Position numbers and translations under genes: made by a program
From: a virus
Virus record (IMG/VR): IMGVR_UViG_3300037245_002806
Location: 35,906-99,905 of that record
DNA length: 64,000 nt
Direction: 5' to 3' (one strand)
Notes under the pieces: model-generated
Databases searched by the model: none
Told to the model about the DNA's origin: nothing
The model's input: the letters and a program-made list of their open reading frames with translations, nothing else
Shown: positions 4,863-48,608 of the stretch, in pieces
Layout of the letters: each line of letters begins with the position of its first letter
Position numbering within the stretch: position 1 is the stretch's first letter

Positions 4863-4863
4863 C

Positions 4864-5118: not shown

Positions 5119-5142
5119 AAGCATAATTATCGCACTTTTTCC

Positions 5143-19598: not shown

Positions 19599-19607
19599 GG
19601 ACCCCTC

Positions 19608-19973: not shown

Positions 19974-19978
19974 GGTTT

Positions 19979-20485: not shown

Positions 20486-20578
20486 TTTTCTTTTTCTCCG
20501 AGAGCGCCGGCGGGCGCGCGCTATCACGCCAATTAGATAGGACGTTAAAGCCCCGCCGGCGCCTCTGCCCGAGCAGGT

Positions 20579-21113: not shown

Positions 21114-21114
21114 T

Positions 21115-21130
21115 CTATATCACCACCCGC
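21115..21130 (-). promoter_or_regulatory. putative late-promoter motif
   Basis: GCGGGTGGTGATATAG fills the intergenic gap; ATG follows after 1 nt. Confidence 0.7.
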
Positions 21131-21483: not shown

Positions 21484-23439
21484 CTAACTTGTAACGATCC
21501 CGTGTGGGCTTTCTACTATGTCAAGATTGGTCGTCTGTATATCTGCCGTTCGTTTCTTTAGGCTCGTTTCTGGTTTCGTAACCTTGGCATGTAAAACCAC
21601 ATTCCCTTGGTCGTCGGGAACAAAGATAACCCCCCGGCCCCCGAATTCCGAACGGTACCAAAACTCCTCGCTCCAACGTTGTTGCTGTTCGTCGGTTTGT
21701 CGGAATCTGAGCCGGTACCCTCTGCGCCGCAATTTCTCTTTCTTTACGTTCCATCTTTCTGCCACGAAGGCCGTTTCCAACTGCTGTTGGCTGAACGCCT
21801 CGATTATTTCCACCTCTTGCTGTATTGGGTTTCGGAGAAGCGCCAGGGGATCCCCTACCGCCCATTGCCCCACCGAAACCGACTCAACCGGGTTGGTCCC
21901 TTGGAACCGAATCCGATAAAACCGCTGGTATTCCCCTGCAAAGGAAATAAAACTAGCTTGGCTCTCGGCTGGAAACTCGTCCCCCGCGATCCCGGTGGTC
22001 GGTGTGCCGTTGACCGTAAAGGTGATCCCGCCGCTGGCCGCAACCGCGTAGGCTGCCGGCGTCGAGCCAAAAAGATAAAGGGTTGCATCCGACCCGGCCA
22101 CCAACTCGCCTCGATCCCCTAGCTGCACCCAATTGCCAGATCCGTTGATAAAAAGTCGCCGGTTGGCCGTTGTCGAGATATTGATCTGGATCCCTTGGTA
22201 AAGCCAAAGGTGCCCGTGCTCCCCTTCCCACCCGTTCGCCGGTCCGCCGGTATCGCCAACCGTCCACCCCGATCGCGTAAAGTCGATGAGGCCGTTTACG
22301 ATACTCCCGCTCATGCTCTCCAAGCTGTCGTCGATATAAACCTGCAACGTCGCTGTGGAAACGTCCGCCGATATGATCGCGTTGTGCCAAACATCGTCGG
22401 CCAAAAAGGTCGTGGTGGAGGTGTGATCGAGCAACGTAGTTGAGGCTGCGTTTTGCGCGAAAATGTGTAACTGGTTCGAAGCGTTTATCTCGATAAGGAA
22501 AAAGCCGCCCGAATTCCGGATAATGGTCCTCGCCTGGCCGGCCCGCCCGGTGCACTGGAACCACACCGAAAGAGTAAACTTTGCCGAATCCACCGACCCG
22601 TTTGGATCGCTGCCCACGCTGAGATAATCGCCGGAACTGGCAAAGCGTATGCTGTGATCCACCGGCGCCGTGGCCCCCAAGCTGTAATCCGACCGCGCGA
22701 GAATAACCCGCACCGCCGGCGCAACGTTGTGGCTGTGGAAGCTCGAAAGGGTTTGCCGTGGCAGGATAAACAAGTCATCCACCCAAAAGGTACGGTTGGC
22801 CACCGCGGAATCCATGTGGATCCTAACCTGCAAAGTGCTCGTGTCGGCTTGCCCGATAACGTAGCTCTCGACCGAAAACAAAAGCTCTGTTTTCCCCAAG
22901 GTCGTTATAACGCTTTCGACCGCGTTTACCTTTCGCCTTGTCCATGCCCCAAGCGCGTCGAGATAATCGCCCGTCCGCTTGTTGTAAACCTCGATGGTCA
23001 CCGGGCTGTCCGCGTTGCTGGTCTCGGAGTAAACCGACAATTTGAGCAACCGCCCGGTCTGCACGTCGATATCTTGTTGGACTTCGACATTGCCGTTGGC
23101 CCCGTTGGCCATTTCGGCGCTCGACCCCGATACCACCGGGGTGGAAACCTCTTGCGTGATCGCGCCGGTACCGGTAAGGGTGGTTGTAAAATTGCCCGGA
23201 AGCCCGCCGGACCACGAATCGAAAGAGCCCCCCAGGATAAGGTTGACATCCACTTGGATCCAGTCGTCCTCTTGGGAAGCCGGGAAGATAAACCGCTGGC
23301 TTGGCCTATCATCTGCAAGGCGAGAAAGGGGGAATATTGCATCCGGCGTTTGGCTGGCCGTTAGAGAGGAAACCTTGCTTTCTAGGACGTTGGACCCCTT
23401 GCCGGCCAAAACAAGGGCTTGGTGCACGTCTGTGCTCAT
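21484..23439 (-). CDS. tail protein, Dit-like with inserted carbohydrate-binding and LamG-like domains
   Basis: NLILGGSFDSW...FWVDD (CBM-like); FTLSVWF...WHN...QVYID (LamG-like); YQRFYRIRF...VGQW.VG C-terminal part. Confidence 0.65.
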   Translation of the reverse strand: MSTDVHQALVLAGKGSNVLESKVSSLTASQTPDAIFPLSRLADDRPSQRFIFPASQEDDWIQVDVNLILGGSFDSWSGGLPGNFTTTLTGTGAITQEVSTPVVSGSSAEMANGANGNVEVQQDIDVQTGRLLKLSVYSETSNADSPVTIEVYNKRTGDYLDALGAWTRRKVNAVESVITTLGKTELLFSVESYVIGQADTSTLQVRIHMDSAVANRTFWVDDLFILPRQTLSSFHSHNVAPAVRVILARSDYSLGATAPVDHSIRFASSGDYLSVGSDPNGSVDSAKFTLSVWFQCTGRAGQARTIIRNSGGFFLIEINASNQLHIFAQNAASTTLLDHTSTTTFLADDVWHNAIISADVSTATLQVYIDDSLESMSGSIVNGLIDFTRSGWTVGDTGGPANGWEGEHGHLWLYQGIQINISTTANRRLFINGSGNWVQLGDRGELVAGSDATLYLFGSTPAAYAVAASGGITFTVNGTPTTGIAGDEFPAESQASFISFAGEYQRFYRIRFQGTNPVESVSVGQWAVGDPLALLRNPIQQEVEIIEAFSQQQLETAFVAERWNVKKEKLRRRGYRLRFRQTDEQQQRWSEEFWYRSEFGGRGVIFVPDDQGNVVLHAKVTKPETSLKKRTADIQTTNLDIVESPHGIVTS

Positions 23440-26400
23440 GTGAAGAGCCTCCTAATTGCCGTCTGTGGTAAAGCAAACTGTTTGATCTCTAATTTCCGTA
23501 CCCATGCGTCTATCATCTCACCATCGGTACCGTCTTTGCTACCGAGATAAAGTAAGCTCTGGGTGGGAAGTGGGAATTTCTGCCCGACCACCGTGGTGGT
23601 ACCTTGCTCGCCGCCCACGAATATTGAGATAGAAAACGGGGTTTCGTCCAAGTCGCCCTCGGAACTAATCCACCTCGTAGCCACTTGCACCGGCTGCCCC
23701 GCCATTATGTGCGGCCAATATTTTTCGCAAGAAAACGTTGTGCCCGCTACCCGGCGCTCGTAAACGAACTTCTCATTGTCGCAATCGTAGTAGCAAACAT
23801 CCCAATTAAAGGAATCCACCACCACCCCGTAAACGTACCGCCTCGACCCCGCCCGGCGTGGTAGCTGCGCGGTGTTCCATATCGTTTCCAACTCCACCCC
23901 GAAGGTGCCCCGGCCCTCGGCTGGATATGTTGGCCGGTCCCGGTTGTTTTCGAGAAAGAAGGCGAGCCCATCCCGAACCACCGGCCCCGTCCGGGTAAGG
24001 ATAAAATTGCTCATGTACCGTTGGTCGCGCCCATCGGCGATCCGGCCCCCTTCCACTTGTACCCCATAGATCCGGTTTTGGTGGCCGACGGTGGTTTGCA
24101 CCCCTAGATTTAGGTTTAGGGTCTGGTCGTCCTGCACCGGGCTTGAAGCGGAATCCTCGGCGTTTTGGAGCGTAAATTTAAATTGGTCCTTGGTAACCTC
24201 GCTCCGCACCGGTAAAGGATGCCATTGCGTATCGCCCGCGTTGGTGCAATTGCCCCAGACGTCCCACCCGTAGGCGCCGAAAGCCGGTGGATCGAACCAA
24301 AGATTTATATAAAGCGGTGTCCCGCTCGGATCTTTGTGGATCACCGATACCGCATAGTCGCTCCCCTGCGGCGAAAAAGGTGCATCCCCCTTCTCAAAGG
24401 CCATCGTGGTGTTTATAAAAGTACGGTTGGCCGGTACCGTTGGCGTGGTGAGCACCACCGTTCGCGGCCTCGTCCCCTGTAGATCTTCCTCCCATATATC
24501 ATCGTCGAGATCTTCCGCAATCGCCCCGCCGGCGCCGATGTTTTGTGCCCACCCGGTAAAAACGTCTGTGGCCCCCTCGGAAAACGCCGAATTGACCACC
24601 CGGTTGGTCGTTCCGTTTATTACCAGGATCCCCTTGATCCCCGTCGGTGGCTCCCCGCCGTTTAGCTCTTGGAACTGCCCCGCAAAATCGTCCCGTAGAT
24701 AGTCGTTTGTGGTGCGGACGAAGTTGAGGGAAACCCCCGGCGTAAGCACGGCCATCCCCGTTGCGCTGGCCCCCTTGGCTCGGGTGGAGCCCGTGATCCA
24801 AAGGGTTGTAAGAAACTCCCGCACATCTAAGAAGGTCGTTTCCACCTGGTCGGTCATCATGTTTACTTTTTTGCGGAAAAGCCGCATGAGAGACCGATCC
24901 CACCGTTCGAACCCCAAGGTTGCCGATAATCTTGGGATCGCGTTGTGGATGCAACCCACATCGTCGAGCATCCGAACGTCGCCGAAAGCCGGTGGCAGGC
25001 TGAGCTTTAAAAACGGCTGTGGCTTCCGGAGTAACCGGAGCTTTCGAGAAACGATATCCCGCGCCGCGTCGATTTTCTCGGGGATTAAGTCTAGATCGAT
25101 TTCGAGAACTAGATTCGAGATCTGCTTGTAATAAAACTTGTTTTCCCCCATCGCCTCCCAGATCACCACCAAAACGTTAACCTCTGCCCGCGTCCACGCG
25201 AGACCGGTAAACGGGCTCAAAGATCTAGCAAAAGGCTTGTCCTCGAAAAGCTCGTTTAACTGCACCGATTCGGAAACGTCGGTACCGCCGTCGGTGCCAA
25301 GTCGCCAGGTAACCCGCCACCCCGCCGAAGAAAATTGCTCGGCCCTTGCCCGGCAGATCGCCGTCACGCTCGTTATTTGGGAAACCTCGGGAATGCCTGC
25401 AAAATCCACGCCAAACTTCTTGTTTCCGCTGTGCTGACTCTCCATATATTTCGAGTCGTCTGGCGAGTCGGTTGGATCGTCGATTGTAAGATGGTAATAC
25501 AATTCCCCACCGTTGGGCTTGCGTCGATACTCGCACTTGGCGAAAAGCTGAGAGATGCGGGTTTGCCCAATATTGTTTTCGTTGTCGATTCCAACCGTTG
25601 CCGCGTTTACATTCGCAACGGTGATCTCGGCTGCCGACGAATTGATAGTGCGAAAAAGCGCGAGATCTGTAAAATTGCCAAAGCCGATGTCGAGCCCCGG
25701 ATAATCGCCGTTGGTGCCGCACCCGGCAGGATCGTCGCCCGGCCCCACGTGGGTTCGAGCGGTAGAAAGTATGCCCGTTAGCCGAATTATGGTGCGAAAC
25801 CCGCCATCGTTGCTTTGCGCGGGCGGCCCATCCATTAGGCTCAAATAATCGGCGGAATTCGCCCTCGGTGGCGTGCCGATGCCGCAAGGCGTGTCCCCGG
25901 CTTGCGCCCCCAAAGGATCCCCTTGGTTTAGCATGGTGTGCCGCCCATGCCCCGCAAAAGAGATCACGCTGATAGCTTCCGCCGGCAGGTTGTCCACATG
26001 CGCCTCTGTCCGGTCGGTGCTCTGGTTCATTAGCAAACATTGCGTGTTATCGTCGCTCGGCGTCGAAAACGTGTCCTTTGTTACCACCTCGTGCGCCCGA
26101 TCTTGGTTCGCTATCACCGCCCCATCTATACTCGGGTGGAAGAAACCTTGCTGGAAAGCAACGAAAAGCCGAATAAAGCCCCACCGCTTATCCTTTGCTG
26201 GCGTCTCCCCCAGGAAGTTAACCCCTAGCTCTAAGGTTTCCAGATCCGCCAGAGTAAAAGGGTTCCCTGTTTTCGGGTTGATCGAAAGGGTAACCGGAGT
26301 GAGCGTGCCGTAATTCGTCGCGTTGCTGTGCCCGATAACCCAATCCGAATCGCCAGATCCGAACCGCATCAGTAAATCTAAACCCGCGGTGGTACCCGCT

Positions 26401-27176
26401 TCGTTCCCGACGAAATAATGGATCGTAAGGGCCGAAACTGAGAGGATTTGCCAAGGCGCCAAAGAAGGGTAAGAAACGTATGCCCGTTGATCACTCGTCG
26501 AGGTTGCGCCTGCATAGGAACCGTTTGGGGTATCGCCCGCAACGTTGGGATCCCCGGCCAAAACGCCCCCCAATATAGTGCCGCTCGACCCGACGATCTC
26601 GTAAATCGTATCCGCACATGCCGGCCCCACAATAAGCGTATCATCGGACATTGGAGCCCCGCCGCCGGCTGCATCGAACCCGGTACCCACCACGCTTGTG
26701 ATCGATTTTACTTTGAAAGAGGTGTAGTGCGGCCCCTTGCCAACCGACCCTAATTGCCAAGCATCCACCCGCCCGTTGTCGCCGTCATCGGTATAAGTGA
26801 TCGTGATCGTACCGTCGCCACCACCGCCAATGATCGAGTCGTTATTGTCTACAAAAAGCGCCGCGTAAAACTCCGGAAAGTTGGGAACCTCCCCGCCCCT
26901 GAGGGTAAAAGTCTTATTGCCTAACCGCTCCCCTAGTAGCTGGCGCTCCCCGACCCCCGCCGCGGAAACCGCCGGCAGAGAATTCGGTCTGTGCCCGCGG
27001 TTGCGGACCCGAACGATCCCGCCGTCTTCGAGTGTATCGGCATTCGGCCCGATGGTATCGCTTGCCGGGTATCCGGTGCTCGTCCATCCCGCCGACATAC
27101 TTGTTGGCTGTAGGTGGATCCAGTTTTCGTTCTCAAAAACTCTAGTGCTGCGCGGTTTTAATCGTAAAATAGTCAT
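23436..27176 (-). CDS. large tail tip / receptor-binding protein
   Basis: 1246 aa, beta-rich, repeated (N/S)P.TG..(W/F)T domains, C-terminal LamG-like LYLGS...DAWVRKL; ATGA coupling. Confidence 0.75.
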   Translation of the reverse strand: MTILRLKPRSTRVFENENWIHLQPTSMSAGWTSTGYPASDTIGPNADTLEDGGIVRVRNRGHRPNSLPAVSAAGVGERQLLGERLGNKTFTLRGGEVPNFPEFYAALFVDNNDSIIGGGGDGTITITYTDDGDNGRVDAWQLGSVGKGPHYTSFKVKSITSVVGTGFDAAGGGAPMSDDTLIVGPACADTIYEIVGSSGTILGGVLAGDPNVAGDTPNGSYAGATSTSDQRAYVSYPSLAPWQILSVSALTIHYFVGNEAGTTAGLDLLMRFGSGDSDWVIGHSNATNYGTLTPVTLSINPKTGNPFTLADLETLELGVNFLGETPAKDKRWGFIRLFVAFQQGFFHPSIDGAVIANQDRAHEVVTKDTFSTPSDDNTQCLLMNQSTDRTEAHVDNLPAEAISVISFAGHGRHTMLNQGDPLGAQAGDTPCGIGTPPRANSADYLSLMDGPPAQSNDGGFRTIIRLTGILSTARTHVGPGDDPAGCGTNGDYPGLDIGFGNFTDLALFRTINSSAAEITVANVNAATVGIDNENNIGQTRISQLFAKCEYRRKPNGGELYYHLTIDDPTDSPDDSKYMESQHSGNKKFGVDFAGIPEVSQITSVTAICRARAEQFSSAGWRVTWRLGTDGGTDVSESVQLNELFEDKPFARSLSPFTGLAWTRAEVNVLVVIWEAMGENKFYYKQISNLVLEIDLDLIPEKIDAARDIVSRKLRLLRKPQPFLKLSLPPAFGDVRMLDDVGCIHNAIPRLSATLGFERWDRSLMRLFRKKVNMMTDQVETTFLDVREFLTTLWITGSTRAKGASATGMAVLTPGVSLNFVRTTNDYLRDDFAGQFQELNGGEPPTGIKGILVINGTTNRVVNSAFSEGATDVFTGWAQNIGAGGAIAEDLDDDIWEEDLQGTRPRTVVLTTPTVPANRTFINTTMAFEKGDAPFSPQGSDYAVSVIHKDPSGTPLYINLWFDPPAFGAYGWDVWGNCTNAGDTQWHPLPVRSEVTKDQFKFTLQNAEDSASSPVQDDQTLNLNLGVQTTVGHQNRIYGVQVEGGRIADGRDQRYMSNFILTRTGPVVRDGLAFFLENNRDRPTYPAEGRGTFGVELETIWNTAQLPRRAGSRRYVYGVVVDSFNWDVCYYDCDNEKFVYERRVAGTTFSCEKYWPHIMAGQPVQVATRWISSEGDLDETPFSISIFVGGEQGTTTVVGQKFPLPTQSLLYLGSKDGTDGEMIDAWVRKLEIKQFALPQTAIRRLFT

Positions 27177-29107
27177 TCGATAAACTGTGGCAGGCTACTC
27201 GGAAGCCAAAAGGCTTGCAGGTTTTCCGCCGCTCCGTCTTCGATTTCGATGTCTTCCACATCCACGTTGGCAAGGAACTGATTTTCCGCCTCTTGCCGAA
27301 GATACGCTATCGAGATTTTATTTAGGATCTTTCTGCCATCCTCCTTATATTTCGGATCTGTTAGGTCGTGCAATCCCTCTTCTATAACGTGGGTGGTCGG
27401 ATAAACGTCGATCGTCGCATGGTCGTTTACCCCGATGGAAACCAACCCCAGGTTGTCGAACCACACCTTTATCTCAAGGTTTTTCGAGAAACGGTTGATC
27501 TCTTGCAGAATCCCCGATGCCGCCGTTTTTCCCCCGATATACCTGGAGCCGGCTTGCCCGGTCCTATTGAAAAAGTCCCGAGCCTCGGTAAACCGCACCG
27601 TGTTTACCGGAAGCCCCGTTGTGGCCTTCCAATTGCCGCTGGCGTACTCGCTAAAAACGAAGTTAACGAACCAATGTAGGAACTGCAAAGCCGGGTTTGT
27701 AAGCAAAAGCCCGGTACCGTCGCCGGTCTCTTCGTACCCCTTCAGATCGGCCCGAATTTCCTTTTCCTTGTTGGCCGCCGCGCCGGCCCCAACCAATTGC
27801 GCCCCGCTGTATTGCCGCCCGTTCTTTATTGGGTACCACTCCACCCAATCGGTTGTCGGGGTGAGTAGGGCAACCGTCGGGGGATCTCCGCTCTCGTATG
27901 TATAAAGGTTGGTGTGCTCTTTGATCCGCCCGTAGGAAGAAACGAAAGCGGCATCGGCCACCCGGAATAGCTTGACCATGCCGTCGTTATTTAGCTCTTG
28001 GCTACTGTGGACCCCATAAATCTGCGGTACATAAATGTCGTAGATTTTAGGATCCGGCGCCGCGGGAAAGTCGGGCTCGGTAAACTTGGGCTGTAGGGTG
28101 GAGCCCTGGAAAGCCGTATCGTCTTGCTTAAATTTTAGCTTCCACGTGTTCGCCTTGATCTCTTCTTGGTCTTCGAGTAGCCCCACAAAAACGGTGTACC
28201 AATCCGCTTTGTCGGTAACGTCCGGGGAAATCCACCGGATATCGACCGCCGCCCCTGAGAGCTTTTTCTGGCTGGCGAGTAGGTCGGAAAATGTCCGGTC
28301 TGGATCAAACAGAACGGCGCCGGCGCTGCTCTTCTGGAGTGCGTTGGCCGGCGAAGTAAGGTTCACATCCGGGCTGTCGATCGACTGGATCAAGGGTTCG
28401 TATAACCCCTCGCTCCGGCTGTTTACCCCCACGATGCTATAACGGCCCACGTCCTGTGTGGTGTAATCCACTTCTAGCCACATCTGGGTAAAATTCTGGC
28501 CGTTGGTCCCTTCCCCAAGGCCGTCGATGGCGTTTACGATCTCGCCCGCAACCGGCGCAACCTGTGCCGGCGTCCATGCGGCCCCGGTATCGGGGTTTAG
28601 ATCGAATTCGTAAAAAACGGTTTGGAATCCGTCGTTTGTAAACCGGTCGTATCCTGGTTCGGGCGCCCCGCTCTGGTAGTAGGTGGAAGCGCCCACGAAA
28701 AGCCCAAAGCTCCACGTACCGTGGTTCGTATCCGTCATCCTCGCCCGGCAGAAAAGCCGGACCCGCTGCACTGCAACCGCCAACGGGTTTAGGCTGGCGA
28801 AGGTAACCCGAGAAAACATCTTGTGGTTGTCGGTCCCATCTGACCAAACATAGGTGCCGGTATCGGGTGTGCCCGGTGGATCGTCGAGCGCCTCGTGTAC
28901 CGTCGCCGCCCCAAAAACCGAATGTTCTGCATCCTTTAGCAAAGTCGCGGTGGGCAAAAGCACGTCGGTTTGGGACGTCTCCGGAAAAACGATCCGGATA
29001 ATCGGTACCAGAACGAAAGAGGGTTTCCGAAGCTCTGCAAGTAGGCTGGCCGAGAAATCGCCTACGTGAACTGCTGGCCCCGCTGTTACGAATTTCGCTA
29101 TCGGCAT
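27173..29107 (-). CDS. tail hub / Tal-like protein
   Basis: VFVGLL, PQIYG, LLTNPALQF, N.I.I.Y motifs typical of tail hub proteins; position in tail module. Confidence 0.65.
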   Translation of the reverse strand: MPIAKFVTAGPAVHVGDFSASLLAELRKPSFVLVPIIRIVFPETSQTDVLLPTATLLKDAEHSVFGAATVHEALDDPPGTPDTGTYVWSDGTDNHKMFSRVTFASLNPLAVAVQRVRLFCRARMTDTNHGTWSFGLFVGASTYYQSGAPEPGYDRFTNDGFQTVFYEFDLNPDTGAAWTPAQVAPVAGEIVNAIDGLGEGTNGQNFTQMWLEVDYTTQDVGRYSIVGVNSRSEGLYEPLIQSIDSPDVNLTSPANALQKSSAGAVLFDPDRTFSDLLASQKKLSGAAVDIRWISPDVTDKADWYTVFVGLLEDQEEIKANTWKLKFKQDDTAFQGSTLQPKFTEPDFPAAPDPKIYDIYVPQIYGVHSSQELNNDGMVKLFRVADAAFVSSYGRIKEHTNLYTYESGDPPTVALLTPTTDWVEWYPIKNGRQYSGAQLVGAGAAANKEKEIRADLKGYEETGDGTGLLLTNPALQFLHWFVNFVFSEYASGNWKATTGLPVNTVRFTEARDFFNRTGQAGSRYIGGKTAASGILQEINRFSKNLEIKVWFDNLGLVSIGVNDHATIDVYPTTHVIEEGLHDLTDPKYKEDGRKILNKISIAYLRQEAENQFLANVDVEDIEIEDGAAENLQAFWLPSSLPQFIE

Positions 29108-29674
29108 CTAGTTCTTCAGTTCGTGTTTGGTCGTAACGGTAAAGGTGTGTGTGCCGTCTGTGCCAACCCCCTCCACTTCCATGCGCATGTCTGGCCCCAG
29201 GATGAGAATTTCGTAAACGAACCGGTACCCGCCCGACGTTGGAACCAACCCCATGTCGGTAACTTCTCTGACCTGCTCCTCCGCGATATACCACGTCGTG
29301 CCATCGTCGTCGCTGTATTGCATTCGAAGGATGAGTTTGTCCGGTGGGCTCGCGCTCCTGGCCACCGAAACCCATATATTCGCTTTCCGGTAAGCCGAGC
29401 AATCCACCTTGGCGCTTTGATCGTCCGCCACTGCGTTGAGGGTAACGGCGCTCTGCATCGCCGTGATCGTGCCCCTCGATACAATTTCCCGAACCCCTAG
29501 CCCGTAGGAAGCCACCGCAATGGCCGCCGCTTTTACCGCCGCCAACTCCGCCGCCAAGGCGCCGGCCATTCGTGTCCGCTCGCGCAAAACCGGAGTGCCC
29601 GAAACGTCAAGAGATTCGGAATCTATTTTGTCCCCACCGGACATAGGATCTAGTTCAACGTACCCGTCTCCCAT
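29108..29674 (-). CDS. putative virion protein (188 aa, MGDGYVEL...)
   Basis: GGGGAG SD; beta-sandwich QYSDDDGTTWY. Confidence 0.65.
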   Translation of the reverse strand: MGDGYVELDPMSGGDKIDSESLDVSGTPVLRERTRMAGALAAELAAVKAAAIAVASYGLGVREIVSRGTITAMQSAVTLNAVADDQSAKVDCSAYRKANIWVSVARSASPPDKLILRMQYSDDDGTTWYIAEEQVREVTDMGLVPTSGGYRFVYEILILGPDMRMEVEGVGTDGTHTFTVTTKHELKN

Positions 29675-29678
29675 TGGC

Positions 29679-30815
29679 TTAGCTCCCCATAAAGAGAATA
29701 ACTGGTCTGAAAATGTTTTGGTTGTGGGTGATCGCCCCAAGGGTTGCCGGTACCTGGCCGGCTACGCTCGGGTTTGCCGCGGTGCCCGTCTTCGAGCATC
29801 CCCCGTTGGTCTCCATGTTGGTAAAAAAGTCCTCGTATCCGTCGTTTGTGCCGCTCGGTGGCCCCTCTGCCAAAACGAGGCAACTGGTACTTGAGGCTGT
29901 CGCGGTGTAAATTACGTAATAAGTGCCGGCCTCGATCCGGGTGTCGGAAATGTCCACCGAGATGGTTTGATCGTTCGAAGCGTAGGCCACCGGCCCCGTA
30001 TCCAATAGCTTGGTCGTGCCGTCCTGCTCCCACACCGAAACCGATCCAAAATCGCAATCCCCATCGGAAACGGTATCCGTGCCCCAGATAACCCGATCCA
30101 CGGTGATCGGATATGGGAATACCCAACAAAAAGCCTTCATCTGGTTGTCTGCATTTGTAATCGTGTTGGACGTTATCGATCGCTCGGTTTCGTCGTAAAG
30201 CGGGAATAGAAGAAAAGTCGGCCCCACGTGGTCGGGCTCATTTAGCCAGTCGGCCCCATCGAATCGTAGCTGGTCCCGGTCCGCCGGCGCCGTAAAGTCG
30301 GTATCTGTCATCCCGTCGAGGGTTCCCGTACCGGTGCTCGAATTGATCCAGTCGGCCCCATCGTAAGAAAGCACCTCGCCGGATCCCGCCGCTGTGATCA
30401 CCACGTCGGAAAGGTCGTCTATTGCGCTGGCGCTCCCCGCTTGGTTTTCCCACCGGTTATCTGTTACCCCGTCGTACCGTAAAACCTCGCCGTCGGCTGG
30501 CCCCGAAACGAAAACATCGGAAAGCCCGCCTAGATCAACGGCCCCTTCCCGGTCCGCCCATGTCGAGCCGTCGCACGTCCGGAACTTGCTCGATACCGTG
30601 TTGAAGTAATAGGCGCCCTCGGAACTGCTGTTGCACGTCGCTGGATCGCTCGCGTAGCTTGGCCACGACGCCAATCCGGTGGAGGTGATCAACCGGCCCA
30701 AAATGTCGATGGTTTTTGCGTCGATATACTGCGCTTTTACTGCGTTTGCAACAAAAGCGTTTAAAAGCACCACCGCCAGGAAGCACACCCCCAAGATATT
30801 TAATAGTTTTCTCAT
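29679..30815 (-). CDS. tail-fibre-like protein with Sec-type signal peptide
   Basis: MRKLLNILGVCFLAVVLLNAFVANAVKA|Q; P.TC....G.YYFNT...F..CDG..W and three (L/M)(S/T)D.......(E/Q).L.(Y/F)DG..W.N fibre repeats. Confidence 0.8.
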   Translation of the reverse strand: MRKLLNILGVCFLAVVLLNAFVANAVKAQYIDAKTIDILGRLITSTGLASWPSYASDPATCNSSSEGAYYFNTVSSKFRTCDGSTWADREGAVDLGGLSDVFVSGPADGEVLRYDGVTDNRWENQAGSASAIDDLSDVVITAAGSGEVLSYDGADWINSSTGTGTLDGMTDTDFTAPADRDQLRFDGADWLNEPDHVGPTFLLFPLYDETERSITSNTITNADNQMKAFCWVFPYPITVDRVIWGTDTVSDGDCDFGSVSVWEQDGTTKLLDTGPVAYASNDQTISVDISDTRIEAGTYYVIYTATASSTSCLVLAEGPPSGTNDGYEDFFTNMETNGGCSKTGTAANPSVAGQVPATLGAITHNQNIFRPVILFMGS

Positions 30816-30817
30816 GG

Positions 30818-31318
30818 CTACCTCTTGGGAAAGCTGTTGTAAACGGCGTCCACGTCCTGTGCCCCGGAATCCCCGGAAATCTTTAACCCGAGCCGAACTT
30901 GGTACACGGGATCTGGGATATTGACGATAAACGAGCCCGTCGCCGTTACCACGTGATCCCCGATACCCGGCCAGATCTGCGCCGCTTGCCCCTCGTTCCC
31001 GACCAACCGCGCCTCAACCCGGAAGTCCAGAGAAGTCGCGTTGATCGTGTCGATTTCCACTTGGATGGCTTTACGCTCGACCCCGTTGGCGGTGATCCAT
31101 CCGTCGTCGGCCCCCGCCCCGCTGTCGCACCTTATCCCGGCTGGAGCCCCCCCGCTGTCGCAAAAGATATACGTCCCGCTGGCAACGTTGTAACTCTCGA
31201 AGATAGCTTGGCTTTTCTCGATCCCGGTGTCCGGTGGCTGTGCATAGCTGCTGTATGCCAGTAAGGCGATTAGGGCGCTCAGCGCCAGAATCGTCGAAAT
31301 AATCGGTGGCTTCTGCAT
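30818..31318 (-). CDS. secreted beta-sandwich protein with Sec-type signal peptide
   Basis: MQKPPIISTILALSALIALLAYSSYA|Q; one Cys pair. Confidence 0.75.
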   Translation of the reverse strand: MQKPPIISTILALSALIALLAYSSYAQPPDTGIEKSQAIFESYNVASGTYIFCDSGGAPAGIRCDSGAGADDGWITANGVERKAIQVEIDTINATSLDFRVEARLVGNEGQAAQIWPGIGDHVVTATGSFIVNIPDPVYQVRLGLKISGDSGAQDVDAVYNSFPKR

Positions 31319-31354
31319 TTTCGTTCTCCCATGCGCCCCCGGTGGAGTCGCTTT

Positions 31355-31370
31355 CTATATCACTACCCGC
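31355..31370 (-). promoter_or_regulatory. putative late-promoter motif
   Basis: GCGGGTAGTGATATAG, intergenic. Confidence 0.7.
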
Positions 31371-31375
31371 CTTGG

Positions 31376-32008
31376 TTAAAGTCTTATACACCGCAAAACC
31401 GCATGATCCATTGTAATCGTTGGATCGCTGCCGCTCGAATCCAGCCAAAGCTCTACATATTCGTTTCGTTCCAACTCCACAATAAACCCGGTACCCAAGG
31501 CCGCGTGGTCGGTGGGTGTGGTAACCTGCCGATCCACTCGGGTCGTTAGATCTACCGCCCCGTTGTCTGCAAGGTATATCTCCAAAAGTAAATTGTTCTT
31601 GTCCGCCGATGCCGCAACGCTTACTGAGCAATGGAAAAAAGAGGTTTTTGCCCCGGTGTACCGCAACCGGTTGTTGGCTGGCATGTCGAATTGCGCTGTA
31701 TCCCCCAAGGTGGTTGTGCCTAGCGCCTTTAGCGGTGTGCCCGAGGTGTTGGACGTTCCCGCCGCCGTCGAAATATAAAACTCCCCATACGCCGGTACAA
31801 TCCCGCGCTTAGTAAAGGCAAAGCTCTCAACCCCGTTTACCGCAAAACCCAAGGTGGAACCGTCCTTTTGGAATAGCCCGGATTTCCGATCGGTATCAAC
31901 GGCGAGCCCCGGAAGTAGTGCCGTACCCGGCGGGAACTGCAATTGCCGGAACTGCCCGAAGGCCAGGAAAAGCCCCGCCGCGAGTATTACCAAAAGTGTT
32001 TTTTTCAT
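31376..32008 (-). CDS. short fibre-like protein, signal peptide plus C1q/BclA-like head
   Basis: MKKTLLVILAAGLFLAFG|Q; FPPGTAL.PGL...SGLFQKD domain; NRLRYTG...IVEL..NEYVELW C1q/TNF-like pattern. Confidence 0.75.
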   Translation of the reverse strand: MKKTLLVILAAGLFLAFGQFRQLQFPPGTALLPGLAVDTDRKSGLFQKDGSTLGFAVNGVESFAFTKRGIVPAYGEFYISTAAGTSNTSGTPLKALGTTTLGDTAQFDMPANNRLRYTGAKTSFFHCSVSVAASADKNNLLLEIYLADNGAVDLTTRVDRQVTTPTDHAALGTGFIVELERNEYVELWLDSSGSDPTITMDHAVLRCIRL

Positions 32009-32035
32009 AGCCGTTACCCCCCTTATATCACCGCC

Positions 32036-33070
32036 CTACTTACAATTCCATGCGCCGGCCTCTCGAAAGGCAAAAAGCCCCGTCCCGCTGTCGGTGCATG
32101 GCGTGCCGGCGGTACAATCGCTGCAATAAACCATCGTTCCATTGTTGGAAGAAGGCAACGCGGAAAATACCACCGACCCGATTTGCACCGCCTTGGTTGT
32201 GGCGTCGATCACCGTAATATCGCCCGCAAGGTCGGGAAGCCAGATCTCGTTGTCGGATCCCGTCGGATCCCTCGCCTTTAAACGTGTCTCGATCGTGTCC
32301 GCCGTGTTACCTTCCCACTCGATTTGATTGCCCCCGAACCACACCGCGGTTGCTAGATTCGGAACCACGGCGGAAGCCGAGCCCGTCGAGATCGGGAGCC
32401 ACACGTTGCCGCCCACGGCAGGGGAAGCAGAGGCTGAGTTGTAGTCTGCTAGCCAAACTCGCGTGGTCCCCGTCGCCTCGATTGCTCCTAGCCTGGTCTC
32501 GAAAGCGTCTACGTTGGACCCTTCCCAATAGATTTGCTGCGTTTCGCCCCAGATCGAATCCGCTACATGTGGCGCATTGGTCGCCAGATCCGTAATGACA
32601 AACGGCTTATAGGTTGCGGAAGTGCTCGATAAGAAATATTCCTCCGCGTTGGCGCTGTCCTGCATAACATAAACCGTGTCGCTCGTCGGTGACCCTACAA
32701 CCCCAATAAGGATCTCGAAATCGTCTGCCGTTGTCCCCTCGAATTTGAGCCCGTTGGAAAGCCCCCACACCGATCCGGCGGATTCTGGTACCTGGTCCGG
32801 GTCGAGGTGCACCATAAAACTGGTGCCGGCTGGCGGTGTCGATCCAAGGATCCCGGTCTTTGTAAACGAAAAGCTCTCGACCCCGTTAACGGAAAACGCC
32901 AAAGTGCTCGCGTCTTTTTGGAAAAGCCCCGATTTCTTGTCGCTGTTGACCACTAGCCCCGGATAAAGCGCCGTGCCGGGTGGAAATAGGGTTTGCTGTC
33001 GTTGTGCCACCGCGGTGCAACTGCACCCCAAAAGAAGAAAAACCGCCAGAAACGCCGTGATCTTTTTCAT
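32036..33070 (-). CDS. fibre-like protein with signal peptide (SPI, or LLGC lipoprotein)
   Basis: MKKITAFLAVFLLLGCSCTAVA|Q; same FPPGTAL domain; three W......(F/W)EG...D..E repeats; C-terminal YCSDC...C...WNC. Confidence 0.8.
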   Translation of the reverse strand: MKKITAFLAVFLLLGCSCTAVAQRQQTLFPPGTALYPGLVVNSDKKSGLFQKDASTLAFSVNGVESFSFTKTGILGSTPPAGTSFMVHLDPDQVPESAGSVWGLSNGLKFEGTTADDFEILIGVVGSPTSDTVYVMQDSANAEEYFLSSTSATYKPFVITDLATNAPHVADSIWGETQQIYWEGSNVDAFETRLGAIEATGTTRVWLADYNSASASPAVGGNVWLPISTGSASAVVPNLATAVWFGGNQIEWEGNTADTIETRLKARDPTGSDNEIWLPDLAGDITVIDATTKAVQIGSVVFSALPSSNNGTMVYCSDCTAGTPCTDSGTGLFAFREAGAWNCK

Positions 33071-33082
33071 GGTTACCCCTTT

Positions 33083-36000
33083 TTAGTTCTGCTCGAAAAG
33101 TGCCTCTCGCATGGAATCGGTTACGACCCCCTGGAAATCCTCGTCGATAATTTCGCGCAAAGCGTCGGCCAACTCCTGTTTTGTCATCCCGATCCGCTCT
33201 TCTCCTTTGGCGTCTCGCTCCACCGGTGCCGAAATGCCCCCGAGGTTGATATCTCCGAATTGGAGGTTAAATCCCCCGAATCCGCCCTGTGCGCTTACGT
33301 CTCGCCCGGCCCGTAGCGCGTTGGTTTTGCCCGCGGGGATCACGCTTACGAATTCGTTTGGGTGGACTGTGAATCGAGTCGTGGCCCCGACGAGACCACC
33401 AAAGCCGGAAGCGGTGGACCTGGATCCGCCGCCCCCACCACCCCCGCCGCCACCGTCGCCCCGTGGTGCATCGGGAAATTCGATCTCGGCTGCTGCCCTC
33501 GCTGCCTCTCTCGCTGCGTCTGCGATGCGCATGGTTGCTGTTACGGCTGCATTGGCCCCTGCCACCACCGGCCCCGTGAAAGTGTCTGCAACGGCGCCTA
33601 AGCCCTCCTCGATAGCCTTGTTCGTGGAATCAAAAGCCGAATCGAGCGCCGCCGCGGTTTCCGTCCCGACGTTTCGAAGCTCGGTTTCCAAAGCATCGGA
33701 AACCGGCCCCAACCCCGCTACTATGCTTTCCCCGCCGGCTGCAAAAGTATCCGAAATCTCGCCCACCGAGGTTGCCGCGGTATCCGAAAGGCCGGCCAAC
33801 CCGGAATCGATCTCGCCTAGCTGTTCATTGGCGCCGGCGAGCCCCGCGTTTAGGCCGGCGGTACTCTCCTCCCCCAAAGAAGTCGAGAGGGTTTCCCCGG
33901 TGGCCGCCGCGGTTTCCCCAAGGCCGGCCAACTGCTCTTGTGTGGCCCCGAGTAGCTCGGCGATAAGCCCCAGAGCATCGGCCATTACATTCATGGGATC
34001 GGTGGCAAAAGCGATCCCCGCGGCCTCGGCTTGGGTGATCAAGGCTTGGGTGTTGGCGTCGAGCGGAATCCCGAACCGCTCCGCCGCGTCGATGGCGCTC
34101 TGCAAGAATGGCGCCATTTGTTGCAAGGCTTCGTTTTCTTTAAGCCCCGCCGCGGTAAGCTGCTCGAAAGCCGCGGCCCCTTGGCGCTGGAAAGCGGAGA
34201 AAGAATCCGCGGTAAGGTACCCGCTATTCGCCATGCCGACTAAGGCTTGGTTGAGCCCCTCGACCCCTTCTAGCAACGGGCGGAACTCCTCTTGCCCGGC
34301 AATCTGGAAAAGCCGTTGCACCCCGCCGAAATTAACCCCCTCGCCACCGAATTCCTGTAGCTGCTCTTTTAGCTTGTCGAAAGCCGGTTTAAAGGCGTCC
34401 ACCGCGGCCAAAAGCCCTTCACTCTCCATTGTGGCGAAGAAAGCCCCCGCGAAAATGGTGGCTTGATCTTGGGCATCTTGTGGATCCACTATTTGGATCC
34501 CACCGACGAACTTGCCGATCCCCTCTGCGGCCTCTTGGAGCGCCGCCGAAACGAAAGCCGCCACCTCTGGTACCTCTTGCCCAAGCTCACGGGTGGCCAT
34601 TACGATGTTTAGGAGCGCCGCGTCTGCGACCTTGCCCGCTTCGAAAGATTCCTGCGCCATTAGGCCGAATGCTTCGCCAACCTCTGCGAGCCCCTCTTCA
34701 ACCGGCAACGTGCCCGCCGCCACCTCTGTAAGTAGTTTAACCGCGGCCTCGGAAGCTCCTGCAACCCCGTCTTCGAAAGCCTCGAAGCCCTCCTGGGCAA
34801 TAATGTCGCCAAGGTTGAGAAGGGATTCCTGCTCGATAGTCCGCCCCGCCGCTTCGGCCCCTTCTTTGATCGCCTTGGCCAACTCCTCGGAAACCGTAGC
34901 CCCAACCGAATCCCGGATCTCGCTTGCCAACTGCTCGCGCCCTCGACCCCGGAAGAAACCTACCAACCCGCCGATGGCTGCACCGACCCCGGCCCCTATT
35001 GGCCCGCCGACTTGGCCACCCGCCGCGGCCCCTGCCATGGCGCCTTTGGCCGCCGATACCGCCGCGCCGCCGGAGCCCGTTGCCCCTGCAACCCCGGCAA
35101 TCCCGCCGGCCACGGCGCCGGCGCCGGCTTGTAACTTCTCGGCCCCGGTACCCTCCCCGCCCAAGATCGATTGCTGGAAATCTCGGATCGCCGGTAAAGA
35201 AGCCCCAAGCTGCTGGATTCCCGCAACTGCAATCCCCAGAGACGAACCGGCGCTCACGCCGAATGCCTGCATTATGTTGGAAAGGTCCGCCATTATCCCG
35301 CCAAAATCTATTGCCGAACTGGAAGCTAAACCGAATTCGTCTTTTATCAACTCGACCGCCGCGGCTGCTTCCGGGCTCTTGGCCGCGATATCGTCCAAGG
35401 CTGCAATCGCCGCGTCCTGAAACTCTTGGGTGGCGCCCTCGCCCGCTTCCATCGCTGCAAGGATCGAATCCTCGACCACTTGTAGCGATCGCGCGGTATC
35501 CTCGCTCATTACGCCGTTTAGCTCGGTAAACTGCGCCGTTAGCTTCTCTGTGGCATCCACGTCGCCAAGGCGCTCGGCCTCTTTTATGATTTCCTGTAGG
35601 GTTTTCCCGACGTCCTCGCCGGCGTCAACTAGCCCCTCGGCCTCGGTAGCGATGGCTTGGATCTGCTTGGCCGTAAGCGCCGCAACCCCGCCGAACTGCT
35701 GCACCCCTTTGGTAAGGGTTTGAACCCGTTGTGCTTGGGAGTCGAACCCGGCTTTCTCTAGCTCGGCCACGAATTCCCTAACCGCGGCCCCCGCTTCGTC
35801 GAACCCGAGATCCGATAGCTCGGCCTTTAACGCCTGTAGCTCTGGCGGTAAGGCGCCGGTTTGCTCTTCCAAGGTCGCTAGCATCTCGGCGAGCTTCATG
35901 GCCCCGTCTGCACTAAGCTCCGAGACCGGCCCGATCCCCTCGATAGCTGCCGAGAAAATGGCCACCTCTTGCGCCAAAGCTGCCGGCTTGAACTCGTCGA

Positions 36001-38356
36001 AAGATTCCGCAAGCTCTCGCGCTTTCTCCCCGGTAGCATCGGCCTCTAACGCCAACTCCGCCATGCGCTCTTTTACCTGTGCCAAAAGGGGTTCAACGCT
36101 CGCCCCGTTGGCCGCCAAAACCTCCAAGCTGTTGGCAACGTCTTCCACGCCGTCTTTGGTTAACTGCGCCACCCCGCCAATGCTGGCGATCGCCGCGGTG
36201 ATCACGTTGGCTTCTCGTGCCGCCGCCACTGAGGTTTTAAGACTAGCGGCCACCCCTTGCACGGCCTCGTCGAACTCCTTTTGCGCTTCCGCCGCCGCCG
36301 CCGCCGCTTGTGCCGCCTTGAACTGTGCTTCCTCGGCCTCGAAAGCCGCCGCGATCATTTCTTTGGTCGCCTCGGCTGCCCCCTCGGTTGTCCCCTGTAG
36401 ATTTTTAAGCTCGGCGTTTATGATTTCCATTGCCCGCGCTTCGTCGGTAATTATTTCGCCGGCGAGCTTAGAAGCCTGCGCCAAAGTCGCCGTGGTTTGG
36501 ATAACCTTGCTTTGCTTGTCTTCCGCCTCGAATATCTGCGCCCCCATCCATGCAATTGCATCGCCGAACTGACTTGCCGCGAAAGATGCCGCTTTAAAAG
36601 GTGCCGTTAGAGCGAAAATGGCCACCTCGACCGCTTTCGCCGCCCCTGGAATCGCCGACACGGCTTCCATTACCCCTTGCCCAAAATCCACCGCCAGATC
36701 CGCAATCCCCGTGAACACCGGCCCGATAAGAGAAAGCGCCCCCTCGATAAGCCCGACGTTTCGCACGGCCTCGCGTGTGGCGTCGTCTACCCCTCGCAAT
36801 TTGTCGCCGTACTCCAAAAGCGCCCCACCTAACTGGGTACCGATCACGGCGCCCGCCCCCACCGCGGCCACGCTCAACGCCGCGGTACCCGCCGCGGCCC
36901 CGGTAAGCGCCGGAATTACCCCGCCCAACTTGGCGGTGATCCCTGCCAGAGCGGTTTTACCACCCAAGGTTGCAAAAGCTCCCGCCAGGCTGCTTGCCGC
37001 GAATGCGAATTGCCCCATGATCATAATCGCCGGCCCCATGGCCGCGGCCAACCCCGCAACCGCGAAAGTCGCCTTCTGTAGGAAGGGGGGCCAATCTGCA
37101 AAAGCCTCCGCCATGCCGGCCAACTTCTCGATCCCCGGTGCAACTACGTCATCGACGAAAGAGCGGAGAATGGGAAGCATCGTATTTCCAAGGGTAATCG
37201 CCACGTCGATTATTGCGGCCTTGGTAAGCTTCATCTGGTTCTCGAAGCTGGCCAACTGCTTCGCCGCGATTTCCTCGGTAGTCCCGCCGGCTTTCCGTAG
37301 CTCGGCCTCATAATTTCGGATTTGGTCGGAAAGCCCGATAAGTGCTTGTAAGCTGGCAACCGACCGATCCGAGAAACCCAACTGGAGCAAAATCGCCTTT
37401 TGGGTTTCGGCGCTCGCCCCGATCAAGCTGTCTTCCAAGTCCTCGATTATATCGGCCATGTTGTTCATGCGGCCAGAAGTATCGAAAACTGCGATCCCTT
37501 GTCGCTCGAAATCCTCTTTGTTTTTGATCGCCTTGGTACTAAGGTCTCGAAGTACGATCCCTAGCTGCTGGCCGGCAATCTGGCCCTTGATCCCTTGGTC
37601 TGCAAAAGCGGCCAAAACCGCAACGCCTTCCTCCACGTCTTTGTTGATCAATTTTAGGGCGGTACCCGCTCGGGTGGTGAGTGCGATGGAAAACTGCTCC
37701 ACCGATGCGTTGGCCAAAGTGTTGGCTTTTACCAGAACGTCGGAAACCCGCGCCATACCTTCCATGGTTGCTGTTACGTCGATCGCCTGGGTATCGGTAT
37801 CTCGAATCGTAAGCCCCAAGGCCGATTGTGCATCGGTAAGTAGGTCGGTCGCCGTCGCCATGTCAAACATGCCGGCTTGGGCAAACTTCGAAACGAGGGG
37901 AAGCGCCCCGATGCTAGCCGCTGCATCCAACCCTGCCGACGCCAGAAAGAAGTAAGAATCCGCCGCCTCGGTTGCCGAAAATATGGTTTCCTTGGCAACC
38001 GAGCGGGCGGTATCTTCCATCGCCACTTTCATCTCGTCGAACTGCTCCACCGTCTCGGTGCCCAAGTCCCCCATGATCGCCATGCTGGCCGTCATGCTCG
38101 ACTCGAAGTCGCTGGCAAACTTGATCGCCGCCCCGGCTGCCAATGTAAGCGGTAAGGTGATCGCCGCGGTCATCCCACGCCCAACGGTGGAAAGTCCTTG
38201 CCCAACCGCTGCCAATTGCTGTTGAGTCTTCATCAATTGATCTTGGGCTTTCTTGGCTTTGGTGGCCATCTTTTCGAAAGCCGTGCCCGCCGCTTTTACA
38301 CCGGTAACGGCCCCGCTGGAATCTACTACCAGATCAATTCGAACTGTGTTGGCCAT
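33083..38356 (-). CDS. tape measure protein
   Basis: 1757 aa Ala/Gly-rich; TP901-like core (ITLPL, DFESSM, FSATEAA, LASAGLD); follows the chaperone pair. Confidence 0.95.
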   Translation of the reverse strand: MANTVRIDLVVDSSGAVTGVKAAGTAFEKMATKAKKAQDQLMKTQQQLAAVGQGLSTVGRGMTAAITLPLTLAAGAAIKFASDFESSMTASMAIMGDLGTETVEQFDEMKVAMEDTARSVAKETIFSATEAADSYFFLASAGLDAAASIGALPLVSKFAQAGMFDMATATDLLTDAQSALGLTIRDTDTQAIDVTATMEGMARVSDVLVKANTLANASVEQFSIALTTRAGTALKLINKDVEEGVAVLAAFADQGIKGQIAGQQLGIVLRDLSTKAIKNKEDFERQGIAVFDTSGRMNNMADIIEDLEDSLIGASAETQKAILLQLGFSDRSVASLQALIGLSDQIRNYEAELRKAGGTTEEIAAKQLASFENQMKLTKAAIIDVAITLGNTMLPILRSFVDDVVAPGIEKLAGMAEAFADWPPFLQKATFAVAGLAAAMGPAIMIMGQFAFAASSLAGAFATLGGKTALAGITAKLGGVIPALTGAAAGTAALSVAAVGAGAVIGTQLGGALLEYGDKLRGVDDATREAVRNVGLIEGALSLIGPVFTGIADLAVDFGQGVMEAVSAIPGAAKAVEVAIFALTAPFKAASFAASQFGDAIAWMGAQIFEAEDKQSKVIQTTATLAQASKLAGEIITDEARAMEIINAELKNLQGTTEGAAEATKEMIAAAFEAEEAQFKAAQAAAAAAEAQKEFDEAVQGVAASLKTSVAAAREANVITAAIASIGGVAQLTKDGVEDVANSLEVLAANGASVEPLLAQVKERMAELALEADATGEKARELAESFDEFKPAALAQEVAIFSAAIEGIGPVSELSADGAMKLAEMLATLEEQTGALPPELQALKAELSDLGFDEAGAAVREFVAELEKAGFDSQAQRVQTLTKGVQQFGGVAALTAKQIQAIATEAEGLVDAGEDVGKTLQEIIKEAERLGDVDATEKLTAQFTELNGVMSEDTARSLQVVEDSILAAMEAGEGATQEFQDAAIAALDDIAAKSPEAAAAVELIKDEFGLASSSAIDFGGIMADLSNIMQAFGVSAGSSLGIAVAGIQQLGASLPAIRDFQQSILGGEGTGAEKLQAGAGAVAGGIAGVAGATGSGGAAVSAAKGAMAGAAAGGQVGGPIGAGVGAAIGGLVGFFRGRGREQLASEIRDSVGATVSEELAKAIKEGAEAAGRTIEQESLLNLGDIIAQEGFEAFEDGVAGASEAAVKLLTEVAAGTLPVEEGLAEVGEAFGLMAQESFEAGKVADAALLNIVMATRELGQEVPEVAAFVSAALQEAAEGIGKFVGGIQIVDPQDAQDQATIFAGAFFATMESEGLLAAVDAFKPAFDKLKEQLQEFGGEGVNFGGVQRLFQIAGQEEFRPLLEGVEGLNQALVGMANSGYLTADSFSAFQRQGAAAFEQLTAAGLKENEALQQMAPFLQSAIDAAERFGIPLDANTQALITQAEAAGIAFATDPMNVMADALGLIAELLGATQEQLAGLGETAAATGETLSTSLGEESTAGLNAGLAGANEQLGEIDSGLAGLSDTAATSVGEISDTFAAGGESIVAGLGPVSDALETELRNVGTETAAALDSAFDSTNKAIEEGLGAVADTFTGPVVAGANAAVTATMRIADAAREAARAAAEIEFPDAPRGDGGGGGGGGGGSRSTASGFGGLVGATTRFTVHPNEFVSVIPAGKTNALRAGRDVSAQGGFGGFNLQFGDINLGGISAPVERDAKGEERIGMTKQELADALREIIDEDFQGVVTDSMREALFEQN

Positions 38357-48598: not shown

Positions 48599-48608
48599 TA
48601 GCTCCACC

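Follow-up and report, generated by a model that had tools for sequence, protein, structure and literature searches.

Four consecutive late genes behind the tape measure gene of a complete 99.9-kb phage genome encode fibre- or lectin-like proteins with predicted Sec leaders and a conserved glutamine at the predicted cleavage site

Tailed-phage virions assemble in the cytoplasm; what, then, is the fate of four consecutive late-operon proteins, encoded directly downstream of a tape measure gene, that begin with signal peptides of the Sec type? This question is raised by the locus studied here, which lies in a window of 64,000 nucleotides (nt), i.e., the whole stretch of DNA that was analysed, corresponding to bases 35906-99905 of one 99,905-bp virus record (IMGVR_UViG_3300037245_002806 of IMG/VR); positions given below are those of the window unless stated otherwise. 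The four genes, hereafter g1-g4, follow the tape measure gene in the same orientation, the gaps tape measure-g1-g2-g3-g4 being 12, 27, 57 and 2 nt. We consider Sec export of their products to be well supported and highly probable, because four unrelated and complete leaders for Sec and signal peptidase I (SPase I) occur side by side, are deeply conserved, stand beside leaderless neighbours and are followed by conserved cysteine (Cys) pairs. The features of the locus are as follows.

33083-38356, minus strand: tape measure, 1757 amino acids (aa); PHROG 1533 at an expect value (E) of 1e-65, and Pfam PhageMin_Tail, E 3e-23.
32036-33070, minus strand: g1, 344 aa; predicted leader aa 1-22 (or lipoprotein leader cut before C16), a handle of about 50 aa, three FEG..D.FE repeats and a C-terminal 4-Cys knot.
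33005-33070, minus strand: part of g1 coding for the predicted signal peptide, aa 1-22, TAVA↓Q; alternative lipobox LLGC, aa 13-16.
31376-32008, minus strand: g2, 210 aa; predicted leader aa 1-18 (AFG↓Q), handle as in g1, C1q/BclA-like head with 2 Cys.
30818-31318, minus strand: g3, 166 aa; predicted leader aa 1-26 (SYA↓Q), predicted jelly-roll beta-sandwich resembling the TNF/C1q/BC2L-C lectin type, C-x10-C pair.
29679-30815, minus strand: g4, 378 aa; predicted leader or signal-anchor aa 1-28 (VKA↓Q), Cys-bridged YYFNT..CDG..W unit, three fibre repeats, and a jelly roll resembling a carbohydrate-binding module (CBM), aa 195-378.

The leader calls, in g1-g4 and in their orthologues, come from a rule-based reading of the n-region, the hydrophobic core and the -3/-1 site. 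The N-terminus of g1 reads MKK, 12 hydrophobic residues and then TAVA↓QRQ, where the arrow marks the predicted cleavage site, and the other three are built alike (g2, MKK..LAFG↓QFR; g3, MQK..SSYA↓QPP; g4, MRK..AVKA↓QYI). The n-regions carry a charge of +1 to +2, the uncharged runs extend over 17-26 residues, and in each protein small residues at -3/-1 precede a glutamine (Gln), namely AVA↓Q in g1, AFG↓Q in g2, SYA↓Q in g3 and VKA↓Q in g4. The initial annotation of this DNA had described n/h/c signal peptides exposing a Gln in all four proteins, mature parts with 4, 2, 2 and 6 Cys, and a lipobox-like LLGC motif within 32036-33070; on re-reading, the N-termini were as described, the counts were reproduced (g1, 4; g2, 2; g3, 2; g4, 6), and the LLGC was found at aa 13-16 of g1, with LLAC as its counterpart in P0001, an orthologue of 73% identity. 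By this motif, g1 may be a lipoprotein instead of a SPase I substrate; in g2, a paralogue of g1, the SPase I site and the +1 Gln align with the TAVA↓Q of g1, and there is no Cys at the place of the lipobox. Given their long cores, g4 and some members of the g3 family could likewise stay anchored in the membrane.

These N-termini set the four proteins apart from the rest of the genome. By a crude gene call over the whole 99.9-kb genome, no other late structural protein has a comparable N-terminus, and the sole other clear export signal is the lipoprotein-type leader (..LFSC↓ESS) of a 507-aa protein encoded on the minus strand at genome positions 13834-15357, about 20.5 kb before the start of the window. 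According to a rough estimate, the chance of four such leader proteins standing consecutively is about 1 in 1000. Further, the Cys density of g1-g4 is 1.0-1.7%, versus about 0.5% in the leaderless proteins g5-g8 encoded next in the operon, i.e., 2-3 times higher.

Conservation among relatives was assessed in 19 readable family members, comprising g1-g4 and 15 orthologues. A positive n-region followed by an uncharged run of 15-29 residues is found in all 19, with n-region charges of +1 to +7 among the 15 orthologues, and this segment is barely conserved in sequence; by this comparison, the leader is conserved as a feature and not as a sequence. In most members, small residues at -3/-1 lie 3-8 residues past the hydrophobic core, and Gln usually comes next. 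P0001 retains the leader, the lipobox, the +1 Gln and all 4 mature Cys of g1, and P0003, a g2 orthologue of 481 aa with an inserted domain, retains the leader, the Gln and every mature Cys. The g3 family shows the leader and a small -3/-1 site followed by Gln in 6 of 6 members; in the g4 family, a positive n-region with an uncharged run of 18-24 residues is present in 8 of 8 members and a clear AXA↓Q site with +1 Gln in 5 of these 8, P0020 being a member without a clear small -3/-1 site. Cys pairs are conserved in the mature parts. Thus, the signal peptides described for the four proteins recur in their homologues, and the Gln in most of them.

The leader does not extend to fibre proteins at large. 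The repeat of g4 is common to 2821 proteins; among the best 150 of these, 13 of the 139 complete proteins have a leader-like start, including all 7 full-length g4 orthologues, and 126 have none. Since the leader is conserved in orthologues and rare among proteins with the g4 repeat, we regard it, as far as these alignments tell, as a derived and conserved trait of these families and not of fibres generally. The families themselves are small: g1 has no relative in IMG/VR and only 4 relatives among 5.8 billion proteins, a tblastn search of 50,697 phage records gave no match for g4, and a metagenome scan added one further full-length g4 orthologue, on a 3-kb contig.

The mature parts of g1-g4 all look like recognition or adhesion modules, judging from their motifs and models. 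None of the four has a match of any kind in Pfam or NCBIfam at E up to 0.1, type IX C-terminal sorting domain included, and for g1 and g3 PHROGs gave nothing either. The fibre motifs that had been pointed out proved to be real in three of the proteins. In g4, the LSDV-type unit, L.D..V...P..G.VL.YDG...W.N, occurs in three copies and is shared with PHROG 9729 'tail fiber'; g1 contains three W/FEG...D.(F/I)E..L units, and its atlas comparison gave weak leads only, to viral fibre-like clusters; and g2 bears a C1q/BclA-like head that matches PHROG 16509, 692 and 24754, including tail-fibre families, with atlas look-alikes among viral C1q-bearing clusters, Mtd_N tail-fibre clusters and BclA-type proteins (template modelling score, TM, 0.63-0.78). 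The roughly 50 residues directly past the leader form a handle common to g1 and g2 (about 61% identity), beyond which the two proteins diverge. The AlphaFold2 model of g3 (predicted local distance difference test score, 79.6) consists of an N-terminal helix corresponding to the leader and a jelly roll, for which Foldseek searches of the PDB returned the BC2L-C lectin, C1q, FasL and the Sf6 needle knob at E 5e-4 to 5e-3 with TM of only 0.3-0.43; against a viral structure library, it resembles many uncharacterised phage proteins as well as actinophage minor tail proteins. The model of g4 is poor in the stalk, as expected for a fibre monomer, and good in the C-terminal CBM-like jelly roll, whose nearest structural neighbours are one chain in the cyanophage A4 capsid map (Z 14.5) and a tail-tip chain of the mycobacteriophage Bxb1 (Z 11.8), followed by many CBMs. 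The Bacteroidota O-glycosylation motif D[ST][AILVMT] shows no overall enrichment in the four proteins, with 4 occurrences in g1 versus 1.7 expected and none in g2-g4.

Gene order was compared with two distant relatives, the IMG/VR fragment L001 and the 62-kb contig L002. Both have the order tape measure-g3-g4-g5-g6-g7(-g8) in common, so the adjacency to the tape measure gene holds there for g3-g4; their g3 and g4 proteins are 38-46% identical to those of the window, orthologues of g5 lie at the same place, and g1 and g2 are absent. Because the order is kept without g1 and g2, the comparison indicates that g3-g4 is a conserved core pair of the tail module of this lineage, and that g1 and g2 are lineage-specific add-ons, present only here and in a close relative of 88 kb. 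As a separate observation, contig JAAESG010000620.1 (62,371 bp; L002 together with L008-L010) carries phage genes throughout, for replication, packaging, the head and the same tail module. The genes that follow g4 in the window are listed below, with a further candidate receptor binder.

29108-29674, minus strand: g5, 188 aa, leaderless, starting 4 nt past the g4 stop; first gene of the leaderless g5-g8 tail-tip block.
21484-29107, minus strand: g6 (644 aa), g7 (1246 aa) and g8 (651 aa); three large proteins of the tail tip or for host recognition, all without a leader and with synteny in relatives.
21484-23439, minus strand: g8, LamG-like (Laminin_G_3, E 1e-8).
17292-19598, minus strand: leaderless protein of 768 aa, one stretch of which weakly resembles GH5 cellulases (E 5e-5, just under the cut-off).

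No match was found for g6 and g7 in the PDB, Pfam, NCBIfam or PHROGs, or for g5 in Pfam, NCBIfam or PHROGs, and a paralogy between g3 and g5 was not detectable. The 768-aa protein and g8, which adjoin the lysis cassette, are candidate glycan binders or depolymerases by their domain matches.

Expression signals place g1-g4 with the structural genes. The element GTGATATAGA occurs in 8 exact copies in the window, all on the minus strand, versus about 1 expected, and the late-promoter motif formerly noticed near 31355 turned out to be one of these copies; a variant of GTGATATAGA also precedes g2.

11868, 16413, 21114, 31354, 39556, 44989, 49654 and 60574, minus strand: copies of GTGATATAGA, mostly just upstream of late genes.
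31354-31363, minus strand: the copy in the 57-bp gap between g2 and g3, 36-45 nt before the ATG of g3.

The element resembles a late promoter of the extended -10 type that lacks a -35 box. The interval 28500-33600 holds no sigma-70 promoter and no convincing terminator, and the guanine-cytosine (GC) content of g1-g4 is that of the neighbouring genes. From these features we infer that g1-g4 probably belong to late, structural-gene expression. The 99,905-bp record has direct terminal repeats and is rated complete, and neither a tyrosine nor a serine integrase was found in the 99.9-kb genome; because the genome is complete and without integrase, g1-g4 are presumably not prophage-expressed. Taking into account the lack of an own terminator or sigma-70 promoter, the undeviating GC content, the synteny of g3/g4 and the lack of an integrase, g1-g4 are by their sequence context overall unlike moron or superinfection-exclusion genes, with only g1/g2 being patchy in distribution.

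The Gln at +1 bears on the host. It is found in about 71% of the SPase I substrates of Bacteroidetes, and high Q-values have also been described in Ignavibacterium, a few Chlorobi and about 5% of cyanobacteria, with low values in the other analysed groups (Bochtler et al., 2018; PMC5837995). In the present phage, a +1 Gln in three independent families and in most of their orthologues would be very unlikely in a low-Q host, if the predicted cleavage sites are right. The initial annotation had linked this pattern to the Q-rule of Bacteroidota; of that link, the Gln itself stands, being strikingly conserved, and the remainder is uncertain, since the pattern conflicts with the promoter type. Five near-identical TTGACA-17-TATATT promoters (10-11 of 12 matches) lie in the early region, at window positions 1616-7021 on both strands, and G-rich leaders of the Shine-Dalgarno (SD) type precede about half of the late genes. 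Sigma-70 promoters of this form and SD-like leaders are not typical of Bacteroidia. The host may be a high-Q organism outside the classical Bacteroidia; alternatively, selection on the phage itself may maintain the Gln, for instance as an N-terminus that cyclises and resists aminopeptidases. No glutaminyl cyclase is encoded by the phage. The gammaproteobacterial label of the metagenome-assembled genome (MAG) that contains L002 was discounted as evidence of a host, because the whole 62-kb contig is phage; the lack of a plant-type glutaminyl cyclase in that MAG is uninformative.

With regard to function, we favour a reading in which these proteins are exported and end up on the virion. The host Sec system would send the late-operon proteins g1-g4 out of the cytoplasm, and signal peptidase I would probably cut before the conserved Gln, with g1 perhaps lipidated and g4 perhaps anchored. 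The mature parts would form the conserved disulfides in the periplasm, where the N-terminal Gln can cyclise; cleavage, disulfides, pyroglutamate and export itself would follow here from established Sec/SPase I and Dsb biology. The resulting proteins would be adhesin-type modules, comprising two small fibres with a common handle and different heads (g1, g2), a jelly roll of the lectin type (g3) and a repeat fibre (g4). These appendages would wait in the periplasm and, in a hypothetical last step, dock on finished tails once holin and endolysin merge the compartments: canonical holin lesions would open a passage between cytoplasm and periplasm just ahead of outer-membrane failure, so that tails could meet periplasmic fibres at high local concentration.

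Several observations favour the virion as destination. Within the tail-tip module, the pair g3/g4 occupies a constant core position, and the handle common to g1 and g2 recalls that of exchangeable fibres. The head of g4 is similar to domains carried on virions, no integrase is present in the complete genome, and the Cellulophaga phage phi18:3 offers a precedent based on mass spectrometry (MS); the PHROG tail-fibre matches of g2 and g4 count in the same direction. In this lineage, the two genes right after the tape measure gene (g3, g4) occupy the usual place of the distal-tail protein and encode predicted periplasmic proteins. Thus, of the proposal that g1-g4 are exported fibre subunits, the export part is borne out by the canonical signals, their conservation in orthologues and the Cys pairs, and the proposal as a whole is partly supported. 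For the entire chain from export through periplasmic maturation to virion docking, we estimate a probability a little short of even. Its furthest extension, a two-compartment tailed phage whose head, tube and hub are made in the cytoplasm and whose disulfide-bonded, pyroglutamate-capped recognition parts are added from the periplasm at holin opening, we put forward as a tentative and rather doubtful model.

A number of points weigh against virion docking, or against the export on which it depends. The leader calls rest on a rule-based reading and not on a trained predictor, and g3 and g4, with h-regions as long as 17-24 residues, could retain these as uncleaved anchors. We know of no mechanism by which periplasmic parts are added to tailed virions assembled in the cytoplasm, and envelope material that co-purified with the virions could account for the MS detection in the Cellulophaga phage preparations. 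Moreover, L001 and L002 lack g1 and g2, yet the sizes of g4-g8 are not visibly changed there, and no docking partner for the handle is evident. Finally, g7, the LamG-bearing g8, the GH5-like 768-aa protein and a 637-aa fibre are other, leaderless candidates for receptor binding, so the phage need not rely on g1-g4.

Some of these points lend themselves to a rival reading, in which g1-g4 are exported and act in the envelope of the infected cell instead of on the virion, either binding or masking the phage's own glycan or protein receptors, which would spare the loss of progeny on debris and keep out related phages, or serving as adhesins or lectins that alter how the infected cell sticks to surfaces. 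The export signals speak for this reading as they do for virion docking, and exported proteins encoded beside tail or receptor-binding genes, such as T5 Llp, Cor of T1/phi80, lambda Lom and T4 Spackle, are familiar. In addition, other leaderless receptor-binder candidates are encoded by the phage, and the comparison of relatives with and without g1 and g2 points to no docking partner. Nevertheless, known exclusion proteins are small, not fibre-like and usually early or prophage-expressed, and g1-g4 stand in the late operon of a complete genome without integrase; g3/g4 keep their place in the tail-tip module across distant relatives, and a common handle such as that of g1/g2 usually indicates parts fitting the same socket. 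We therefore regard action in the envelope as unlikely, though a serious competitor.

The remaining alternatives question the leaders themselves. The N-termini, above all that of g4 and perhaps that of g3, could be uncleaved signal-anchors, making the products bitopic inner-membrane proteins with periplasmic fibre or lectin domains that might organise the periplasm late in infection, through cell-wall binding, release or as a platform for tail-tip parts. The g4 family, in which uncharged runs extend over 18-24 residues and n-region charges go up to +7, would fit this, as would P0020 with its indistinct -3/-1 site; most members, however, have a small -3/-1 site 3-8 residues past the core, usually followed by Gln, and the leaders of g1 and g2 are of the short, classic, cleavable type, which makes anchoring of this kind improbable. 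It is very improbable that no export occurs at all and that the hydrophobic N-termini are cytoplasmic features, such as membrane-active segments or helpers removed by a phage protease. The cytoplasmic assembly of tailed phages and the location of the genes within a tail operon would agree with that possibility, but four unrelated families, together with all their orthologues, combine n-region, core and small -3/-1 residues in the way that marks Sec substrates, the conserved Cys pairs fit an oxidising compartment, and the leaderless g5-g8 show that leaders are not general to tail proteins.

The genomic surroundings are those of an uncultured phage. The window carries a long late operon on its minus strand, the main members of which are listed below, together with the sole large plus-strand gene of the late region.

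51593-54079, minus strand: portal fused to a C-terminal Mu F-like head-morphogenesis domain, 828 aa.
Late operon, minus strand: protease/scaffold-like protein, 969 aa.
47351-48607, minus strand: major capsid protein.
41412-43067, minus strand: GT4 glycosyltransferase (Pfam Glyco_trans_1_4, E 2e-15, also GT4-conflict).
39573-41045, minus strand: tail protein, 490 aa.
54861-56888, plus strand: SNF2-type helicase.

Two open reading frames in the chaperone position are listed after the 490-aa tail protein and before the tape measure; a sequence search of the PDB with the 490-aa protein gave no match. The GT4 glycosyltransferase sits within the structural operon, with head genes on one side and tail genes on the other. 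The capsid protein has at most about 35% identity to any entry in the 50,697 phage records searched, and by this measure there is no close cultured phage. Relatives of the major capsid protein and of the helicase are scattered across many hosts, the closest ones of the helicase being from Thermus phages, Rhodothermus phage RM378 and a Microcystis phage, at 35-38% identity. A lysis cassette, consisting of an endolysin and small membrane proteins, lies apart from g1-g4 at about 19600-21460; an identity of g1-g4 as spanins was ruled out in view of this separate cassette and of their size, which is too large.

If fibre-type proteins of phages routinely go through Sec, their host-recognition parts would acquire disulfides and N-terminal caps, possibly along with periplasmic glycosylation. 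Under the same condition, morphogenesis would come to include the timing of lysis, signal peptides and their +1 residue would help to predict the hosts of uncultured phages, and such receptor binders, where made recombinantly for engineering or diagnostics, would have to be expressed in the periplasm. Should the proteins instead stay on the cell, they would represent a new, fibre-derived class of late envelope effectors. The conflict between Gln pattern and promoter type has a bearing on the reach of the Q-rule.

Phage proteins with Sec signals are already known, as are those following the Q-rule in phages of Porphyromonas gingivalis. T5 Llp, Cor (T1, phi80, N15), lambda Lom/Bor, T4 Spackle and P1 Sim combine a Sec or lipoprotein signal and a gene placed beside tail or receptor-binding genes with action in the envelope. 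Proteins of the Llp/Cor/Lom type are small, non-fibre, early or prophage-expressed and often morons with their own signals, whereas g1-g4 are fibre- or lectin-like, belong to a late operon, match the GC content of their surroundings and, for g3/g4, are syntenic in distant relatives. The P. gingivalis phage proteins are, like the predicted g1-g4, phage-encoded Sec/SPase I substrates with a +1 Gln, and their signal peptides have been read as an adaptation to the secretion system of the host; unlike g1-g4, they belong to temperate phages, have no known function, are proposed modifiers of the outer membrane and were not described as fibre-like or tail-tip proteins (Matrishin et al., 2023; PMC10367356).

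The nearest parallel is provided by gp085-087 of the Cellulophaga phage phi18:3 (NC_021794; Pachyviridae), which also have consecutive leaders followed by Gln (..GYS↓QVL, ..VSA↓QTV and ..LNA↓QTV). Their record designates them as virion structural or tail proteins 'based on experimental MS/MS proteomics analysis'. This phage is a podovirus of a host from the Flavobacteriia and thus offers no tape measure context, its proteins contain only 0, 1 and 3 Cys, and no sequence similarity to g1-g4 was detected; no discussion of their leaders was found in the literature searched, nor any paper on tail fibres with leaders or on the export of fibre-type late proteins of tailed phages. Ordinary tail fibres, built from a common anchor and exchangeable heads (PHROG 9729, 24754, 692), resemble the g1/g2 handle and the g4 repeat, and differ from g1-g4 in having no secretion signal, as do the 126 leaderless proteins with the g4 repeat. 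Taken together, what is new in the present locus is the position of such genes directly after the tape measure gene, the conservation of a pair predicted to be exported, and the mismatch between Gln pattern and promoter type.

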